Virus record (IMG/VR): IMGVR_UViG_3300012940_001453
Coordinates: 1-28,233 of that record
Source: a virus
Lineage: Duplodnaviria > Caudoviricetes
Reading direction: 5' to 3' (one strand)
Length of the DNA: 28,233 nucleotides
Numbering within the stretch: position 1 is the first letter of the stretch; the number at the start of each line of letters is the position of its first letter. Shown here in pieces: positions 17,922-26,058 of this stretch. The position numbers were made by a program, and so were the translations under genes. The notes under the pieces were generated by a model. The model was not told the DNA's origin. It made no database searches and was given only the letters and a program-made list of their open reading frames with translations.

Positions 17922-20900
17922 ATGGCCACCGTTCTCCTCGGGATCGGCGGCCAGGTCTTGGGCGGCGCGCTCGGTGGGCCGTTCGGCGCGCTCATCGGCC
18001 GGGCCATAGGCGCCGTCGCCGGCGCCTATGTGGACCAGGCCATCGTCAACGCCATGACGCCGCCCCAGCACGGGCCGCGCCTCACCACCACCGATATCCA
18101 GACTTCGACCGAGGGCACCGGCATCACGCGCCTGGCCGGCCGCGTGCGAATCCCCGGTCAGGTGTTCTGGGCGACGCGCTTCGAGGAGCGCACCACGCGC
18201 ACCGGCGGCAAGGGCATGCCGTCGGGGCCCGTCACCATCGAATACAGCTATTACGGCAACTTCGCCGTGGGGCTTTGCGAAGGGCCGATCGCCGGCATCG
18301 GCCGCGTCTGGGCGGACGGCAAGGAAATCGACCAGACCCAGACCAGTTTCCGGGTCTATCGCGGCACCGATACGCAGATGCCGGACCCGCTCATCGCGGC
18401 CAAGGAAGGCGCGGCTCCGGCCTATCGCGGCCTTGCCTATGTCGTCTTCGAAGGCCTGCCCCTGGCCAATTGGGGCAACCGCCTGCCGCAGATGACTTTC
18501 GAGGTGTTCCGGCCGGTGGGAGACGCCGAAAAGACCATCCAGGGCGTGGCGCTCCTGCCGGGCAATGAGTTCGGTTTCGATCCCGAGCGCGTCGACCAGG
18601 TCAAGCCCGGCGGCAACGTGGCCGAGAACCGGCATACGCTCATCGCCGCCAGCGACTGGACGGAAGCGATGGACCGCCTGCAGCGGCTCATGCCTTCGGT
18701 CGGCAACGTGCTCCTGGTGGTGCCCTGGTACGGCGACGACTTGCGGGTGGGGAACTGTACGGTCCAGCCCTGCGTCGATGCCGGCGGCAAGACCACGACG
18801 CCGCATTCTTGGCTGGTGAGCTCCACCGGCCGCGCCGGCGCTAAGGTGGTTTCGTATGTCAACGGCTCGGCGGCCTATGGCGGCACCCCGAGCGATGCCA
18901 GCCTTTTGCGCTGCCTTGCCGACTTGAAGCGCCGCGGCCTCAAGGTGACGCTCCTGCCGTTCCTGATGATGGACGTGCCGGCGGGAAACACGAAGCCCGA
19001 CCCGTATTCGGGCGCATCGAGCCAGCCGACTTACCCCTGGCGCGGACGCATCACCTGCTATCCGGCACCGGGCCTGCCGGGCTCGCCGGACAAGAGTGCG
19101 GCCGCGGCCACTTCCGTCAACGCGTTCCTCGGAAGCGCCGCGCCCGGGGACTTCACGTCGACCGGTACCGGCGTTGTCTATTCGGGCCCGGCCGAGTGGA
19201 GCTATCGCCGCTTCATCCTGCACTATGCGCACCTGGCGCGCGCCTCGGGCGCCGTCGATAGCCTGCTGATCGGCTCGGAAATGATCGGGCTGACCCAGCT
19301 CCGCTCGGCCGCCGCCATCTATCCTTTCGTTGAAGGCCTCAAGACGCTGGCCGCCGATGTCCGCTCGATCGTCGGCGCCGGCGTCAGGCTGGGCTACGCG
19401 GCCGACTGGAGCGAATACAATTCGCACCGGCCGGCCGATGGCTCGAACGACCTCTACTTCCCGCTCGATGGCCTCTGGAGCCATGCCGCCATCGACTTCG
19501 TGGGGCTGGACAATTACCTCCCGCTTTCGGACTGGCGGGACGAACCAGGGCACCTCGACTATGACCCGGTGAACGGGCCGACCTCGATCTATGACCAGAT
19601 CTACTTGCGGGGGAATGTCCGGGGCGGCCAGGACTTCGACTGGTACTATGCGAGCGATGCCGACCGCGCCGCCCAGGTGCGCTCGCCGATCACCGATGGC
19701 GCCTATGGCAAGCCTTGGGTCTTCGCCCAGAAGGCCATCCGCGAATGGTGGGAGAACGCCCACTACAACCGGCCCGCCGGCGTCGAGGCGGGCACGGCGA
19801 CGAGCTGGGTGCCGCAGTCCAAGCCTATCCGCTTCATCGAGCTCGGCTGCCCGGCCGTCGACAAGGGCTCCAACCAGCCCAACGTCTTTCCGGACCCCAA
19901 GAGCTCCGAGAACGCCTTGCCGCACTTCTCGACCGGCCAGCGCGACGACCAGATGCAGCGGGCCTATCTTGAGGCGATGCTGGGCTTTTACGCCGACCCG
20001 GCCAACAACCCGGTTTCGAGCATCTATGGCGGGCGGATGCTCGACCTTTCCCGGTCCAATGTCTGGTGCTGGGACGTGCGGCCGACGCCGAGCTTTCCGC
20101 TCGATGACCGCTGGGGCGACTGGGCGAACTTCGAGACCGGCCACTGGATTTCCACCCGCATGGGTTCGGTGCCAGGTCGCGAGGGGCTGGCCTGGCTGCT
20201 CGATGGCGTGGGGTTCACCCAGCGCCTCATCGAGCCGCTGCCCGGCACCGTGGACGGCATCACCATCGGCGACGTGACTTCGGCCCGTTCGGTCCTCGAA
20301 GCGCTGATGGGCGTCTATCAGTTCGATGCCGTCGAGAGCGACGGGCTCATCAAGTTCATCGCCCGGCCGGGGCGGCGCCCGGTGCGCACGATCGACACGG
20401 GCGACCTCGTGGCGGCCGACAATGGCGGGGCGGCTTACCGGCTCACCCGTGGGCAGGAAACCGAGCTGCCGGTGGCGGTCAAGGTCCGCTATGGCGATTG
20501 GGCGCGCGAGGACCAGGCAGGCCAGGCCGAGGCCCGCCGAGCGACGACGATCAGCCGCAAGGTCCTGACCTCGACCCCGCCGGTGACCATGCCCAGCGGG
20601 CGCGCCCGCCAGATCGCCGAGGACGAGCTGCGCGCCGCCTGGGTCGGCCGCGAGCGTGCTTCTTTCAGCCTGCCACCTTCCAGCTTCGCGCTCGATCCGG
20701 GCGACGTGGTGGAGCTGGCCCCGGTGGGCTTGCAGCTTCGCCTTTCGACCATCGGCGCGGCCGAGGCGCGGTCGGTCGAGGCCTTCGCCGTCGAAACCCT
20801 CACCGGCGGTGCCGGCACCACGCCCGAGCCGCAGCCGCCGGCGCCACTCCCGGTGCTGCTCGCTTCCGTGCCGGTCTTCGTCGACGGTCCCTTGCTCACC

Positions 20901-21809
20901 GACGATGACCCGCCGCATGCCGGATACGTCGCCGGCATCGCCAAGCCCTGGGGCCAGGGCCTGGCCGTCTTCCGGTCCGAGACGGATTCGGGATTTGCGC
21001 TCGATACCCTCCTGACCCAGGGCGCCCGAGTGGGCGAGCTGCTTTATGACTTCTGGTCCGGCCCGACCGGCCGCTGGGACCAGGTCAACACCTGCCACGT
21101 GACGCTGCTCGCCGGCACGTTCTCCTCGGCCGAGGAAAGCGCCGTGCTCAACGGCGCCAACCCGCTCCTGGTCGAGAACGAAGACGGCGAATGGGAGCTC
21201 CTGCAGTTCACCTCGGCCGAGCTGATCGGGGAGCGCCAATATGTCCTTCGCGGACTATTGCGCGGTCAGCGCGGCACCGAGCACGCCATGCGCGCGCCCG
21301 TCGCCGCCGGCGCCCGGGTGCTGGCCGTGGACGGGTCGGTGAGCTCGACGGGCCTGCCGGCCGACCTCGCCGGATTGTCGCTCTATTGGCGCGTCGGCCC
21401 CGCCAGCCAGGATATCGGCTCGCCCGATTATGCCACCCAGCTCCGCACCATCGCCGGCAAGGGGCGGCGGCCGCTCGCGCCGTGCCAGGTCCGCGGTCGG
21501 CGCAATAGCGGGAACGGGGATTGGACGCTGTCCTGGGTGCGCCGCACGCGCCTGGGCGGGGACAGTTGGGACCAGACGGAGGTGCCGCTGGGCGAAGCCA
21601 GCGAAGCCTACGAGGTGCAAATCCTCTCGGGCCCGGGCGGGACCGTCAAACGGACCTTCATCCCGACCAGCCCCAGCCAGCTCTACACCGCCGCCCAGCA
21701 GGTGGCCGATTTCGGCTCCGCGCAATGGAGCTTTACCGCACGCGTTGCCCAGGTCTCGGCGACCTGGGGCGCCGGCATTTTCGAGGAGGCCTTGATATGG
21801 GTTCGATGA
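17922..21809 (+). CDS. Megatron / GTA TIM-barrel baseplate tail protein (RcGTA g15-like)
   Basis: FAVGLCEGPI, PAYRGLAYVVFE, YGGTPSD, YAADWSEY, DNYLPLSDWRD, LLRGQRGTE. Confidence 0.93.
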   Translation: MATVLLGIGGQVLGGALGGPFGALIGRAIGAVAGAYVDQAIVNAMTPPQHGPRLTTTDIQTSTEGTGITRLAGRVRIPGQVFWATRFEERTTRTGGKGMPSGPVTIEYSYYGNFAVGLCEGPIAGIGRVWADGKEIDQTQTSFRVYRGTDTQMPDPLIAAKEGAAPAYRGLAYVVFEGLPLANWGNRLPQMTFEVFRPVGDAEKTIQGVALLPGNEFGFDPERVDQVKPGGNVAENRHTLIAASDWTEAMDRLQRLMPSVGNVLLVVPWYGDDLRVGNCTVQPCVDAGGKTTTPHSWLVSSTGRAGAKVVSYVNGSAAYGGTPSDASLLRCLADLKRRGLKVTLLPFLMMDVPAGNTKPDPYSGASSQPTYPWRGRITCYPAPGLPGSPDKSAAAATSVNAFLGSAAPGDFTSTGTGVVYSGPAEWSYRRFILHYAHLARASGAVDSLLIGSEMIGLTQLRSAAAIYPFVEGLKTLAADVRSIVGAGVRLGYAADWSEYNSHRPADGSNDLYFPLDGLWSHAAIDFVGLDNYLPLSDWRDEPGHLDYDPVNGPTSIYDQIYLRGNVRGGQDFDWYYASDADRAAQVRSPITDGAYGKPWVFAQKAIREWWENAHYNRPAGVEAGTATSWVPQSKPIRFIELGCPAVDKGSNQPNVFPDPKSSENALPHFSTGQRDDQMQRAYLEAMLGFYADPANNPVSSIYGGRMLDLSRSNVWCWDVRPTPSFPLDDRWGDWANFETGHWISTRMGSVPGREGLAWLLDGVGFTQRLIEPLPGTVDGITIGDVTSARSVLEALMGVYQFDAVESDGLIKFIARPGRRPVRTIDTGDLVAADNGGAAYRLTRGQETELPVAVKVRYGDWAREDQAGQAEARRATTISRKVLTSTPPVTMPSGRARQIAEDELRAAWVGRERASFSLPPSSFALDPGDVVELAPVGLQLRLSTIGAAEARSVEAFAVETLTGGAGTTPEPQPPAPLPVLLASVPVFVDGPLLTDDDPPHAGYVAGIAKPWGQGLAVFRSETDSGFALDTLLTQGARVGELLYDFWSGPTGRWDQVNTCHVTLLAGTFSSAEESAVLNGANPLLVENEDGEWELLQFTSAELIGERQYVLRGLLRGQRGTEHAMRAPVAAGARVLAVDGSVSSTGLPADLAGLSLYWRVGPASQDIGSPDYATQLRTIAGKGRRPLAPCQVRGRRNSGNGDWTLSWVRRTRLGGDSWDQTEVPLGEASEAYEVQILSGPGGTVKRTFIPTSPSQLYTAAQQVADFGSAQWSFTARVAQVSATWGAGIFEEALIWVR

Positions 21810-21830
21810 CCCTTCGAAGGGGAGGCGTCG

Positions 21831-22610
21831 ATGGCTGAGACCGTCCGCCTCAAGCTGCCGCTGATGTCCGCCAGCCAGGCCCAAAAGCACGTGACCCACA
21901 ACGAGGCCATCACGATGCTGGACCTCCTGGTCGGCGTCATCCCGGTTCTCGACCGATCGCTGACCGCCGCGCCGGCGGCGAGCGATGGCGCGGTCTATAT
22001 CCTGGGCGGCGCCGGTACCGGCGGCTGGGCCGGCTACTCGGCCGGCGACCTCGCCCTGATGATCGATGGAAGCTGGCGCCGGGTGCTGCCTTCGGTCGGC
22101 ATGGTGGCGACGATCGCAGCCGAGGGCGGCCTGCAGGTCTATTGGACCGGCAGCCTCTGGGCGACCCTGGGCACTTCGTCTGGACGCAAGGTCAAGGCTG
22201 CCGCCACGTCCAGGACGAATGACGCGACGCTGGCCAGCGATCCGGATTTGCAGTTCGCGATGGCGGCCGGCGAGACCTACGCTATCAGGCTAAAAGTCTT
22301 CTTCACGGCGCCGGCGACGCCTGGCCTCAAGTTCGCCCTGGTCGGCCCGGCCAGCCCCACGCGCGTCCAGGCCGAGCGCCGGGTGCGCGCCCCGGGCGGC
22401 ACCACCGAGACCATTGCCGGCGACGATGTCTATACGGCGTCCACCGCCATCGCTGGCAACGCCACGGCCCACGGGTTTCTCACCATGGACATCGTGGTCG
22501 AGAACGGCGCAAACGCCGGCACCTTCGCTTTCCAGTGGGCGCAGAACGCGGCCAATGCCAACGCCTGCGCCGTCCGCGCCGGCTCGACGCTCGAATGGGC
22601 GGTGCTGTGA
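21831..22610 (+). CDS. DUF2793 tail fibre-like protein
   Basis: LKLPLMSASQAQKHVTHNEAI..LD N-terminus and GGAGG SD. Confidence 0.85.
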   Translation: MAETVRLKLPLMSASQAQKHVTHNEAITMLDLLVGVIPVLDRSLTAAPAASDGAVYILGGAGTGGWAGYSAGDLALMIDGSWRRVLPSVGMVATIAAEGGLQVYWTGSLWATLGTSSGRKVKAAATSRTNDATLASDPDLQFAMAAGETYAIRLKVFFTAPATPGLKFALVGPASPTRVQAERRVRAPGGTTETIAGDDVYTASTAIAGNATAHGFLTMDIVVENGANAGTFAFQWAQNAANANACAVRAGSTLEWAVL

Positions 22611-22957
22611 TGGCGACCGAGTTCCTGGCCGAGGTGCCTGACCTCGTCAAAGGCTATGACTGGTCCGTCGAGTTGGTCTTTGACGAGCCGACCTTTGCGC
22701 CCGGCGACGTGCTGCGCTCGGAAATCCGGCGCATCCCCACCGACGAGGCGCCGCTGGGTGAGCTCACCACGGCCGCCGGCACGCTGGCCGTCCTCGATGT
22801 CCGGACGCTCGCCCTCCGGGTCCCGGGCGCCATGAGCGCCGACTGGCTGGCCACTCGCATCCGCCTCGACTTCGCCCGCACCAACACCAGCCCGGCCGAG
22901 CTGCTGCCAGTGACGCTCGATGTCCCCGCAGTCCTGCCGATCACCCGGAGTTCCTGA
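22610..22957 (+). CDS. Hypothetical protein (possible fibre adaptor)
   Basis: TGATG coupling and a beta-rich 115 aa product. Confidence 0.6.
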   Translation: MATEFLAEVPDLVKGYDWSVELVFDEPTFAPGDVLRSEIRRIPTDEAPLGELTTAAGTLAVLDVRTLALRVPGAMSADWLATRIRLDFARTNTSPAELLPVTLDVPAVLPITRSS

Positions 22958-22958
22958 C

Positions 22959-23177
22959 ATGGCCGTGACCATCAACGTCCGCCCCCAGCGCGGGCTTTCC
23001 GCTTTCGAGATCGCGCAGCGCAACGGCTTTGGGGGCACCGAGGCCGATTGGCTGGCCCTCCAGGCGCAGCGCGTTTTCGTGCAACCCGCCGAGCCCGACG
23101 CGGCCGGACCCTTCCTCTGGGTCCAGACCGACATCGAGGGCGACGGCTTCACCTTCTGGTTCGAGGACGGAGAATGA
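22959..23177 (+). CDS. Small tail-fibre-associated protein
   Basis: GLSAFEIAQRNGFGGTEADWLA resembles the GxSAYExA..NGF.GTE.EWL motif of phage fibre and collagen-like proteins. Confidence 0.65.
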   Translation: MAVTINVRPQRGLSAFEIAQRNGFGGTEADWLALQAQRVFVQPAEPDAAGPFLWVQTDIEGDGFTFWFEDGE

Positions 23178-23413
23178 CCCTACGCAACGCTTTTGGGCCC
23201 TTGGCCCTGGACGCCACCCTGGCCGCCGGCCAGGTCCGCGACAATACCGGGACGATCGTCAGCCCCGGCAGCTACCCGCAGACGTTCGACTACTACGGGA
23301 CGGGCAAGCTCAAGACCATCACCTTCACCGACGGGGCCCACACCTGGGTCAAGACCTTCACCTGGTCGGGCGAGCGCCTGGCCACCATTTCCGCTTGGAT
23401 CAAGACAGCATGA
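23174..23413 (+). CDS. Small hypothetical protein
   Basis: ATGA overlaps at both ends and GGAG SD. TFDYYGTGKLKTIT...WVKTFTW. Confidence 0.65.
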   Translation: MTLRNAFGPLALDATLAAGQVRDNTGTIVSPGSYPQTFDYYGTGKLKTITFTDGAHTWVKTFTWSGERLATISAWIKTA

Positions 23414-24687
23414 ATTTCGATGATTTCTTTGTGGGGCTCTCCGCCCTGACCGTGCCGATGGGCAACGAGGCCGTCGCCGACAGCCTCAACCATTCGCTGG
23501 GCTTCAAGGCGCTCCAGCTCCTCAACCGCGCTCGCACCGGCGGCCTGCCCACGGTCATGGGCTCCCCGCCCACCGTCACCCTCAGCGCCAGCCAGGCCGC
23601 GACCACCATTTCGGGGGGCGTCCTCGTACGGACGGACGACGCAGCGCTGACGTTCACCTGCGCCTATCCGCGGTCGGTGGCGCCGAGCGGCGGCACGCCC
23701 TGGAATGGCTGGGTCAACGGTTACCCGCTCTACTACCCGGGCGGCGTTCGCCGCGCGGCCGGCGCCTATCTCGGCGGCACGATGCGCATTTCGTTCGGCT
23801 ATGGCGGGCGCTATCTCGACTGGCACCTGATGGGCATGGCGACCTCGGGCAAGGCCTTCCGCCTCTGGGTCGACGGGCAGGTCACCGAGGCGGACCCGTC
23901 CGCGCTCCTCACCGGGGACGCGACCTATCGCCGGCTCATCGTCGACCTGGGCAGCGCCAAGCCGCGCCTGCTCGAAATCGAGATCGACCAGAATATCCGG
24001 TTTGGGGGCCTGACGATCGAGCCGAACTACAACGTGTGGAAAGCGGCGCCGAGCTCGCCGCGCGTGGTCGTCATCGGCGATTCCTACACTGAAGGCCTGG
24101 GCGCGACCTACAACGTGAGCGGCTATTCCCGCCAGCTCGGCCAGCGCCTCGGCATCGCCGATATCTGGGCCCAGGGCGAGGGCAGCCTGGGTTTCCTCTC
24201 GACGGGCACGCAATCGGGCCTCACCGCCCGCCAGAAGCTCGATACGGACGTGACGGCCTACGCGCCCGACTGGATCGTGGTCGCCCTCGGCATCGCCGAT
24301 ACCGGCCAGACGCCTTCGGCCGTCCAGGCCGAGGCCGAGCTGTTCTTTGCCAAGCTCCTGGCGGACAATCCCGAGGCGCCGGTGACGGTTATCGGGCCGT
24401 GGCGCGCACCGGGCACCAATCCGCCCTCGACGATCTTTGACGCGGTGCGCCTGGCCGCAGCCGCCCAGACCGATGCCGTGGCGAGCAAGCGGCTCTTCTA
24501 CGTCGATACCCTGGCCGAGAACTGGCAGCAGATCGCCGGCCGCATCGGAGCCACCAGCGGCACGGGCAATTCGAACGTCTATATCGGCACCGACAACATT
24601 CACCCAGCCCAGGCCGGCCACGACTATCTCGGCCGGCGCGTCTTCGACGCCGTGACAACCCACGCCCGCGCGCTGGTTGCGGCCTGA
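23410..24687 (+). CDS. SGNH/GDSL hydrolase-domain protein (putative tailspike esterase)
   Basis: Block I VVIGDSYTEG, block II GEGSLG, block III LGIAD, block V DNIHP. Confidence 0.85.
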   Translation: MNFDDFFVGLSALTVPMGNEAVADSLNHSLGFKALQLLNRARTGGLPTVMGSPPTVTLSASQAATTISGGVLVRTDDAALTFTCAYPRSVAPSGGTPWNGWVNGYPLYYPGGVRRAAGAYLGGTMRISFGYGGRYLDWHLMGMATSGKAFRLWVDGQVTEADPSALLTGDATYRRLIVDLGSAKPRLLEIEIDQNIRFGGLTIEPNYNVWKAAPSSPRVVVIGDSYTEGLGATYNVSGYSRQLGQRLGIADIWAQGEGSLGFLSTGTQSGLTARQKLDTDVTAYAPDWIVVALGIADTGQTPSAVQAEAELFFAKLLADNPEAPVTVIGPWRAPGTNPPSTIFDAVRLAAAAQTDAVASKRLFYVDTLAENWQQIAGRIGATSGTGNSNVYIGTDNIHPAQAGHDYLGRRVFDAVTTHARALVAA

Positions 24688-24694
24688 TCGACCC

Positions 24695-24721
24695 GGGCCG
24701 TCCGTCGAGGACGGGCGGCCC
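24695..24721 (+). terminator. Strong hairpin after the tail operon (no U-tract; possible terminator or processing site)
   Basis: GGGCCGTCCGTC-GAG-GACGGGCGGCCC. Confidence 0.35.
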
Positions 24722-24857
24722 ACAGGGCGCGGTGAGCGCCCCGGAGCTGGGGGACTTAGTTTGGCGACCTTGACCCCCAAAGCAGCCAAGCGACCACTTC
24801 ACCCGCCACCTCGGCCGAGGCTCCAGGAGGGTGACACAGGATCGTTGTTGAAACCCT

Positions 24858-25067
24858 ATGGACGAGGTACGTTGCCGGTGCGGTGCTTTGCTGTTGCGCA
24901 TGACGCCGCTGGTCTCAGGCGAGATCGAAATCAAGTGCCGCCGATGCGGCAAACTCCATCATTTGAGGCCCGAGAGGTCCGCCGAACGCCGCGAGCGTCC
25001 CGACAGAGGACCCGACGCGTGTGGCTCTACATCCCCAAGACCTTTCTTCCGCAACCCCCGGCGCTAG
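24858..25067 (+). CDS. com: Com-family zinc-finger translational activator
   Basis: MDEVRCRCGALL...IEIKCRRCG matches the Mu Com pattern (IRC..C..LL...IEIRCPRC). Overlaps the start of the downstream modification gene. Confidence 0.85.
   Translation: MDEVRCRCGALLLRMTPLVSGEIEIKCRRCGKLHHLRPERSAERRERPDRGPDACGSTSPRPFFRNPRR
24984..25023 (+). promoter_or_regulatory. Com-binding hairpin and SD-sequestering structure at the methyltransferase start
   Basis: GAACGCCGCGAGCGTCCC followed by SD AGAGGA and GTG 25021. Alternative stem GCGTC (24995-24999) / GACGC (25014-25018) encloses the SD. Confidence 0.6.
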
Positions 25068-25941
25068 TCTCGCCGGCATTTCCCTCTGCGCCGGCGTCGG
25101 TGGGCTCGAGCTCGGCCTGCAGCTCGCCGAGCCCGGATACCGAACTGTTTGTTTTGTCGAGCGGGAAGCTGGAGCAGCGGCCACTCTCGTGGCCCGGATG
25201 GCAGACCAGGCCCTGGATGAGGCTCCTGTCTGGAGTGACCTTAGAACCTTCGACGGCCGCCCTTGGCGCGGCAAGGTTTCGCTCATCGCTGCCGGCTATC
25301 CCTGCCAGCCCTTCTCCTCGGCCGGGCTCAAGCTTGGCGCCGACGATCCGCGCCACCTCTGGCCCGAAGTCGCCCGGATCGCGCGCGAGACGGAGGCCGA
25401 ATGGCTCTTCTGCGAGAACGTGGAAGGCCACCTCAATCTGGGACTGCCCGAAGTCCTCAAGGACCTTCGGGGAATGGGCTACGAGGCTAAAGCAGGCCTC
25501 TTTTCGGCGCTTGAAGTCGGTGCATCCCACCTACGGCGCCGCATCTTCATTCTGGCCCACGCCGACCGCGGTGGCGGGCGGGAATCGGACGGAGCTGGAG
25601 TTCTCGACCAAGGGGCTGCGCTTCCGCGTGGCGACGGACCAGACCGGCAAGCAGGTCTCGCTGGCGACGGCTTCGCGCCTATGGACCCAGATGATGGTGC
25701 TGGCCCAGGCGCTGGGCATGCCGGTCCGGGACTTTGGGAGCTACCGCTTTTCCCGCCCGCTCCATTTGAGCTTGCGCGCTGGAACGAGGTCCTTACCCGG
25801 CGAATGGACCTGCAACCCGAACTTTTTGGACTGGATGATGGGCTGGCCTATCGGGTGGAGCGATCCCATGCGGCCGGTAACGGGGTGGTCCCTCTGGAAG
25901 CTGCGTATGCGTGGCGCACTCTGCGCGCTGCCTTTGGCTGA
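25021..25941 (+). CDS. DNA (cytosine-5)-methyltransferase, alpha polypeptide (motifs I-VIII and X)
   Basis: I SLCAGVGG, IV AGYPCQPFS, VI CENV, VIII HLRRRIF, X AGNGVVP. No motif IX in this frame. Confidence 0.9.
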   Translation: MALHPQDLSSATPGASLAGISLCAGVGGLELGLQLAEPGYRTVCFVEREAGAAATLVARMADQALDEAPVWSDLRTFDGRPWRGKVSLIAAGYPCQPFSSAGLKLGADDPRHLWPEVARIARETEAEWLFCENVEGHLNLGLPEVLKDLRGMGYEAKAGLFSALEVGASHLRRRIFILAHADRGGGRESDGAGVLDQGAALPRGDGPDRQAGLAGDGFAPMDPDDGAGPGAGHAGPGLWELPLFPPAPFELARWNEVLTRRMDLQPELFGLDDGLAYRVERSHAAGNGVVPLEAAYAWRTLRAAFG

Positions 25942-25948
25942 GGGGTGA
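25217..25948 (+). CDS. Overprinted +1-frame protein: putative methyltransferase beta polypeptide (TRD plus motif IX)
   Basis: Open +1 frame with WPTPTA and NPNFLDWMMGWPIGWSD. Third codon positions are almost all G/C over 25553-25735. Start codon uncertain. Confidence 0.65.
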   Translation: MRLLSGVTLEPSTAALGAARFRSSLPAIPASPSPRPGSSLAPTIRATSGPKSPGSRARRRPNGSSARTWKATSIWDCPKSSRTFGEWATRLKQASFRRLKSVHPTYGAASSFWPTPTAVAGGNRTELEFSTKGLRFRVATDQTGKQVSLATASRLWTQMMVLAQALGMPVRDFGSYRFSRPLHLSLRAGTRSLPGEWTCNPNFLDWMMGWPIGWSDPMRPVTGWSLWKLRMRGALCALPLAEG

Positions 25949-25956
25949 GAGAGAGT

Positions 25957-26058
25957 GGTCGCAGGCGGATTTCGAGTAACGGTGGGGGTACTCTCGCCCG
26001 CCTGCGACCGGAGGTTTGGTTTTGAGGTATGCACTTGCCGGGGGGAGTTACCCCGGCA
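25957..26058. terminator. Two inverted repeats between convergent genes (terminators or sRNA)
   Basis: GGTCGCAGGCGG (25957-25968) / CCGCCTGCGACC (25998-26009), and TGCCGGGG / CCCCGGCA (26036-26058). Confidence 0.45.

Follow-up and report, generated by a model that had tools for sequence, protein, structure and literature searches.

A methyltransferase gene read in two frames over its full length in the mom position of a Mu-like prophage: a strongly conserved layout that most likely encodes a two-chain enzyme

M.EcoHK31I and M.AquI are described as exceptions among the characterised C5 methyltransferases in the accessible sections of PMC3404938. According to the accessible sections of PMC2836561, the beta chain of M.EcoHK31I is encoded in another frame of the alpha gene and activity in vivo requires the two of them; alpha by itself loses activity when the beta starts are removed, beta tolerates the loss of its first 42 residues, and the chains work from separate plasmids. 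The available parts of both papers place the target recognition domain in alpha (PMC2836561, PMC3404938). In M.AquI and in gp7/gp6 of mycobacteriophage Corndog the enzyme is divided between frames or genes, with motifs IX and X on the small part and the variable region at the end of the large one (PMC3404938, PMC4351075, available parts). The overlapping methylase segments of Corndog were noted and left unresolved, with a frameshift left open, in the part of PMC4351075 that was available. Two further systems bear on the present locus, each cited from the available portions of the papers. Com of phage Mu recognizes CC(N)2-3GAG in a hairpin loop beside a stem that hides the mom GUG (PMC6483171), and in those Mu-like prophages whose mom slot holds Hia5, Hin1523 or Nme1821 the adenine methyltransferases there are nearly non-specific (PMC3299994). 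GUGUG sites in E. coli reporters yield both frames at DtoStart values of 12/14 to 14/16 (PMC9841429).

The gene described here lies in a viral stretch of 28,233 nucleotides (Caudoviricetes; IMG/VR record IMGVR_UViG_3300012940_001453), which we call the window. The window covers the right half of a Mu-like prophage, in which genes for endolysin, gp27, portal, protease, gpT and tail come before com and the methyltransferase gene, and host-like luxR and cation-efflux genes lie downstream. Since com and then the methyltransferase stand at the Mu-like right end, the gene occupies the position of mom in Mu. A GDSL hydrolase gene immediately precedes com, and over 17922–24687 head genes of the Mu-like kind adjoin a tail module of gene-transfer-agent type (GTA_TIM, DUF2460, DUF2793). 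Two inverted repeats lie just 3' of the gene, near the likely prophage end, at 25957–25968/25998–26009 (12/12 paired) and 26033–26043/26051–26061 (10/11). No sigma-70-type promoter was found between 24600 and 26200. The 930-base methyltransferase gene is open throughout in two overlapping frames with starts two bases apart, and its coding features are as follows.

25021–25941, forward strand: alpha chain, 306 aa, with C5-methyltransferase motifs I–VIII plus X, unconserved filler standing in between
25019–25948, forward strand: beta chain, 309 aa, in the +1 frame and co-extensive with alpha; its translation is inferred from stop avoidance and frame-specific selection
25553–25735, forward strand: beta-selected middle, opening with WPTPTA, with a codon-phase switch in homologues; likely the target-recognition region
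25814–25864, forward strand: motif IX equivalent in beta, NPNFLDWMMGWPIGWSD; pattern NP..WMMGWP.GW
25876–25893, forward strand: motif X (GNGVVP) in alpha; G286, N287 and V289 are invariant in 68 alphas

Alpha reads LCAGVGG at 25084, GYPCQPFS, ENV, RRRIFILA and GNGVVP, which we take to be motifs I, IV, VI, VIII and X in the usual C5-methyltransferase numbering. Pfam PF00145 matched alpha residues 19–180 (E=1.5e-29), and the hallmarks of that family (motifs I, IV with PC, VI with ENV, VIII and X, and a Rossmann-type fold) are present. TIGR00675 gave 75.8 bits, below its cut-off of 100.65, because the match covers residues 20–180 only. The segment between motifs VIII and X is low-complexity, and alpha does not carry the recognition domain and motif IX that a single-chain PF00145 enzyme has there in one chain. 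Both the motif IX-like pattern and WPTP were absent from all 125 alphas searched and sit in the +1 frame; betas contain 0–6 WPTP repeats and alphas none. These repeats we presume to mark a recognition domain.

The +1 frame of the window is stop-free from 24677 to 25948 and matches phrog_1008 (E=1.7e-14); a beta profile matched 890 database proteins. W179 and T181 are at least 90% conserved across 68 betas. A preliminary description of this DNA, made from its letters alone, had listed the five alpha motifs, the low-complexity stretch lacking motif IX and an open +1 frame with WPTPTA at 25553 and a motif IX-like element, and all of these are there. It had also taken the G/C-rich third positions over 25553–25735 as the sign of a frame switch; the richness is real (57/61 beta third positions), but it is already found over motifs I–VIII (117/157 codons). 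Its picture of a gene within a gene did not hold: beta likely begins 2 nt before alpha and finishes 7 nt beyond the alpha end, and its N-terminal 178 codons are open and partly constrained. Beyond that description, we located the likely start of beta at 25019 and found that com overlaps both starts in the third frame.

We propose that this fully double-read and strongly conserved gene most probably encodes a two-chain enzyme, translated from a double start and switched by Com; the sequence comparisons make this reading highly probable. The openness of the second frame is not a trivial property of the alpha code. Five single-frame genes of the window, used as controls, have 5–21 stops each in their +1 frames, and 0 of 200 synonymous recodings of alpha motifs I–VIII kept the +1 frame open.

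To examine homologues, we collected 186 sequences, the window among them along with records of four named phages; a scan of genome contigs contributed only 2 loci. We set aside 3 sequences that lack PCQ, 8 in which alpha closes ahead of motif X, 8 truncated by a contig end, 2 lacking motif I and 10 on the reverse strand. There remained 155 with alpha motifs I to X in one frame, and collapse at 90% identity left 135 non-redundant homologues, which share ancestry so that counts among them are not independent events. The +1 frame had no stop from motif I to X in 131/135 and the +2 frame in 0/135 (12 stops versus 1397), as the preliminary description had expected if stops are avoided. Over motifs I–VIII alone, the +1 frame was open in 133/135, against 3.8 expected from synonymous recoding of alpha. 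Six reverse-strand loci, analysed separately, likewise had no +1 stop. The four exceptions were two internal-start forms, one stop in the middle region and one HNH-like insertion.

A second, reciprocal set was seeded by the motif-IX DNA pattern. It contained 241 loci, of which 2 were duplicates and 97 fell short of motif IV, leaving 142. The window's layout was present in 124 of these 142 viral loci with motif IV in view, and alpha was open across the beta-selected middle in 128/135 loci, against 7.5 expected and 2/135 for the third frame. The family is large: 4794 proteins among 8000 candidates scored matched alpha, some of which may be ordinary C5 methyltransferases. An estimated ~4800 and ~3200 stored viral stretches are hit by two motif-IX patterns.

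These data bear on whether the window holds an ordinary single-chain gene that recently became a pseudogene or was altered by a pair of compensating errors in sequencing or assembly. We regard this as extremely unlikely. The window comparison rests on assembled contigs and not on raw reads, which leaves some room for it. A contig from another study, however, covers 24800–25945 with 62 substitutions and no gap, which answers the concern about compensating indels raised in the preliminary description at the level of contigs, and the family data, with the same layout in 124/142 motif-IX-seeded loci, contradict it. A window-identical contig, possibly the window's own source, is likewise gap-free across the gene.

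To follow selection along the gene, we compared a 33-member cluster of equal length and counted divergence at alpha codon positions 1, 2 and 3. It was 0.05/0.04/0.21 over motifs IV–VIII, 0.08/0.02/0.02 over beta motif IX and 0.05/0.00/0.19 over motif X. In the middle it was 0.30/0.07/0.04: the alpha first position was the most variable there (0.29, with 0.04–0.07 at the third), and over motifs I–VIII and X the alpha third position was the most variable (0.19–0.21). Selection thus runs from alpha to beta and back to alpha along the gene. In 26 homologues that match the window in size, motif IX showed this trend again, and the middle was saturated. The middle of alpha is 4–30% identical among 41 close homologues.

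Divergence at four-fold sites of alpha over motifs I–VIII was 0.197, compared with 0.341 in a neighbouring gene and 0.342 at the beta four-fold sites in the middle, and it dropped to 0.04–0.10 in patches. These low values indicate that the N-terminal half of beta is constrained beyond stop avoidance; the constraint may partly act at the RNA level. Two plasmid methyltransferases beside NgoMIV-type nucleases, ordinary single chains, served as controls. The +1 frames of two ordinary single-chain methyltransferases scored 15–17 bits on the beta N-terminal profile, so part of the N-terminal similarity among betas is a shadow of alpha.

The overlap had been suggested to let the recognition region vary while alpha stays open. 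This idea found no support: the number of repeats does vary from 0 to 6, yet selection within the cluster is purifying, and the overlap adds a no-stop constraint. Of the proposed specificity chain, the second chain stood, and its role in specificity is putative: the published papers place the recognition domain of M.EcoHK31I in alpha, and the beta model has no structural match.

We modelled both chains. Alpha gave a pLDDT of 75.8, with residues 190–236 and 267–279 under 50; its best fold match was M.HaeIII (1dct, E=6.6e-14, 169 columns), and M.HhaI was also matched. Beta alone gave a poor model (pLDDT 59.3, pTM 0.28), with residues 98–139 predicted to be disordered, and neither PDB nor BFVD structures matched it at E<=0.001. 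The beta profile found no family in Pfam and, among PDB sequences, two weak matches to MS2 coat protein that we took as chance. A protein search with beta residues 255–296 for single-chain relatives returned 4 candidates, 0 of them with a Pfam domain. The ESM Atlas placed beta in a viral hypothetical cluster (0.92) and in DNA-methylase clusters (0.83); we did not count this, as a wrong frame over a real gene can score alike.

The missing fold match would suit a reading in which methylation, of low specificity, is the work of alpha alone and beta is a product in its own right, for instance a regulator or inhibitor, and the other methyltransferases of the mom slot are nearly non-specific in the accessible text of PMC3299994. 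This reading is improbable. Alpha has no motif IX, beta carries one where it canonically lies, after the variable region and before motif X, and the alpha chain of M.EcoHK31I is inactive once the beta starts are removed (PMC2836561, available part).

The signals at the 5' end of the gene are as follows.

24858–25067, forward strand: com, 69 aa, a Mu Com-like zinc-ribbon translational regulator (PF10122, E=1.9e-5; phrog_6417, E=7.1e-8)
24986–24998, forward strand: predicted Com-binding hairpin, with a 4-bp stem and a C-N3-GA-type loop with CC(N)2GAG, 33 bases upstream of the start
24988–25025, forward strand: predicted inhibitory stem, in which 24988–24993 pairs with 25020–25025 and covers the double start, in the minimum-energy and centroid folds
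25005–25010, forward strand: Shine-Dalgarno-like AGAGGA, presumably one site for both starts
25019–25023, forward strand: GTGTG double start, with beta GTG at 25019–25021 and alpha GTG at 25021–25023 (context GTGTGG, 25019–25024)

Position 25021 is the sole ATG, GTG or TTG of alpha between the upstream stop and motif I. From the GTG at 25019, beta begins WLYIP, which is the N-terminus of its family, and beta likely starts there. Among 136 open loci with enough flank, 131 have paired starts at −2 or +4: 51 at −2 (NTGTG), 76 at +4 (NTGNATG), 4 with both and 5 with neither. Collapse at 70% identity left 62/65 paired, and the mirror offsets of the pair occurred in 6/140. A −2 pair is automatic for any beta that starts with M-W, so the +4 class and the open N-terminal half weigh more. 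On the spacing scale of PMC9841429, hand counting from the AGGA register of the window gave a DtoStart of 14/16. In the −2 class, 31 of 41 loci with a ribosome-site match have it at 12–14, and 10 further loci have no match; such spacing is ordinary for any gene and is therefore compatible with dual initiation without proving it.

Like the dual initiation reported in E. coli (PMC9841429), the window has overlapping starts, one Shine-Dalgarno site and permissive spacing. The cases in the accessible text of that paper are reporters and, from E. coli, the genes pqiA, tamA and narQ, and methyltransferases are not mentioned there, whereas the window has frames of ~300 codons that are likely subunits of one enzyme.

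The beta chain might instead be made from an internal start as in M.EcoHK31I, with the GTG at 25019 unused or giving a dispensable extension. The EcoHK31I-type beta starts at alpha codon 104 and tolerates the loss of 42 residues (PMC2836561, available part). In the motif-IX-seeded set, beta is full length in 75/119 relatives and an internal start is obligatory in 44/119, and the N-terminal extension is therefore dispensable in part of the family. In beta of the window, residues 67 and 225 are in-frame ATG codons, and residues 98–139 are the ones predicted to be disordered. We nevertheless consider an internal start alone unlikely, because the +1 frame is open over motifs I–VIII in 133/135 close homologues, W2 is invariant in 68 betas (in a set picked for a W near the start) and alpha synonymous sites are suppressed in patches of the N-terminal part.

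For a direct comparison, we used a primer sequence from PMC2836561 to find the EcoHK31I-type gene in 81/5426 complete E. coli genomes, and examined one copy (L434:1998-2927). Its alpha has 309 aa, close to the 306 aa of the window, and matches the alpha profile (E=1.1e-27); its beta has 176 aa, begins in the +1 frame at alpha codon 104 and is preceded by stops in that frame. The RefSeq record of this locus annotates alpha only. M.EcoHK31I (E. coli, YGGCCR) and the window share the same layout: alpha carries motifs I–VIII along with X, and a +1 beta carries motif IX at the same place on the same DNA. The EcoHK31I-type beta scored weakly on the beta profile (11.6 bits), and motif IX aligned weakly, while the motif IX element of the window also matched an in-frame element before motif X in Maddy2 (E=2.6e-6). 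The two systems differ in that the window's beta of 309 aa probably co-starts with alpha, whereas the EcoHK31I-type beta has an internal start and lies wholly within alpha. EcoHK31I belongs to a restriction-modification pair, and the methyltransferase of the window is an orphan behind com. The recognition domain is placed in alpha of EcoHK31I in the available parts of the papers; in the window the middle is selected in beta and is unconserved and predicted to be disordered in alpha. As judged from sequence, the window is set apart from M.EcoHK31I by its full-length beta, the start that both chains share, its place behind com and the selection of the middle in beta. Overall, the comparative evidence supports well the view of the preliminary description that a two-chain, M.EcoHK31I-like methyltransferase occupies the mom slot.

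The family also contains layouts in which the frames hand over at other points. In two loci (L325 and L350), alpha ends past motif VIII and the repeats are joined by motifs IX and X in a long +1 frame, which gives the family a split of the M.AquI type; this resembles M.AquI and Corndog gp7/gp6, in which a C5 methyltransferase is likewise divided, whereas alpha of the window resumes with motif X (PMC3404938, PMC4351075, available parts). In mycobacteriophage Maddy2 (L190:1687-3081) and in L263, motif IX is in the alpha frame before motif X; the +1 frame of Maddy2 retains LPTP repeats and stops midway. From the Maddy2 and L263 layouts, the hand-over point seems to move in evolution. At L385, motifs I–VIII and IX lie in one frame and X in another, which suggests one frameshift, from a damaged copy or from faulty assembly. 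At L153, the beta frame carries an insertion at motif IX, an HNH-like zinc-finger ORF, and alpha stays open, recalling an out-of-frame HNH in a phage methylase in the accessible text of PMC11855218. Roseibium aquae (L003; G001:C20:2349-2699) has 3' and 5' fragments of a second gene copy beside an intact one.

Such relatives are what might be expected if the gene gave one polypeptide through two programmed frameshifts, +1 after motif VIII and back before motif X, or through a single shift from a different start: motif IX is in the alpha frame in Maddy2 and L263, motif X is in the beta frame in L325 and L350, the motifs follow the canonical order along the DNA, and a frameshift was left open for the split methylase genes of Corndog (PMC4351075, available part). 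Frameshifting nevertheless leaves unexplained the +1 frame open over motifs I–VIII, alpha open over the middle and a conserved second start, and the chains of M.EcoHK31I function from separate plasmids (PMC2836561, available part). We consider it very unlikely.

The second chain was thought to be missed by normal annotation. This is usually so: cultured phages phi1026b (gp67), a Vibrio phage, ABMM1 and S9-5 (loci L189:1513-2814, L191:1513-2235, L006:1525-2439 and L007:1438-2172) have an unannotated full-length +1 frame with NTGNATG starts. GenBank does annotate both frames in Paenibacillus phage Bloom, and the accessible text of the paper on those phages does not discuss the dual-frame layout (PMC6070908). 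The search, which covered literature outside subscription journals and REBASE, turned up no description of phage methyltransferases with full-length dual coding or a double start, and term searches of the available parts of PMC11855218, PMC9957025, PMC2884959, PMC8788219 and PMC8227390 found no full-length dual coding. The relaxed-specificity m5C enzymes of Paracoccus (PMC3925955, PMC6536676) were considered as characterised relatives and rejected, as Pyei1_p05 is a 673-aa protein of another type with no long +1 ORF.

The 3' end of com overlaps the alpha and beta starts in the third frame. Over 25019–25067 three forward frames are used at once, by the com end and the alpha and beta starts. A com gene lies upstream in 16/115 loci with enough flank, and its stop is 28–49 nt beyond the methyltransferase start in 12/16 com-linked homologues. 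A 4-bp stem closing a C-N2-4-GA loop was found in 11/17 com-linked loci (window included) against 2/105 others and 20/1727 background tiles, with a pattern defined after inspecting these loci. It sits 30–43 nt before the start in com-linked loci. The stem letters change in pairs (7 cells altered on both sides; 1/500 shuffles scored as high, which is not a probability), and the motif falls in two com frames and once after the com stop. The predicted inhibitory stem and the Com hairpin are mutually exclusive. The stem is no more stable than shuffled sequences (z −0.46), and no consensus structure emerged from RNAalifold for the region upstream of the start; the mean start pairing probability was 0.71 in 17 com-linked loci versus 0.58 in 33 others.

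As in the com-mom operon of Mu, a com gene and a DNA-modification gene stand at the right end, and a candidate Com hairpin with CC(N)2-3GAG lies upstream of the start beside a predicted stem covering GUG. The cargo differs: the window has a two-frame C5 methyltransferase in place of Mom or a single-chain adenine methyltransferase, and Com would gate two starts at once, unlike in Mu. Com likely gates both chains, to judge by these sequence features.

We propose that, late in the lytic cycle, Com would bind the hairpin at 24986–24998 and free the starts from the inhibitory stem. Ribosomes at the single Shine-Dalgarno site would then choose either GTG of GTGTG, and this choice would yield both chains from one mRNA in a fixed ratio. 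Alpha and beta would associate as in M.EcoHK31I, and the enzyme would methylate progeny DNA against host restriction, as genes of the mom slot do.

The two-frame layout has been proven for one E. coli enzyme; here it extends over the full length of the gene, mostly unannotated, in a very large phage family. We think it rather probable that in thousands of phages and prophages one fully double-read gene supplies both subunits of a methyltransferase, with overlapping starts behind one ribosome-binding site that set their ratio, that in Mu-like phages one Com RNA switch serves both frames, and that movement of the hand-over point has produced the single-chain, EcoHK31I-type, AquI-type and co-extensive forms. 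If so, a very common phage gene is half-annotated. Because the unannotated half likely sets sequence specificity, predicting specificity, modelling the structure and cloning from the annotated start would all fail; the last of these drops the start codon of beta. The family would be among the largest of full-length same-strand overlapping genes, and would show AUGUG/GUGUG dual initiation serving in nature to make two functional full-length proteins. It would also offer a test case for the use of dual initiation and for how long same-strand overlaps arise and persist.
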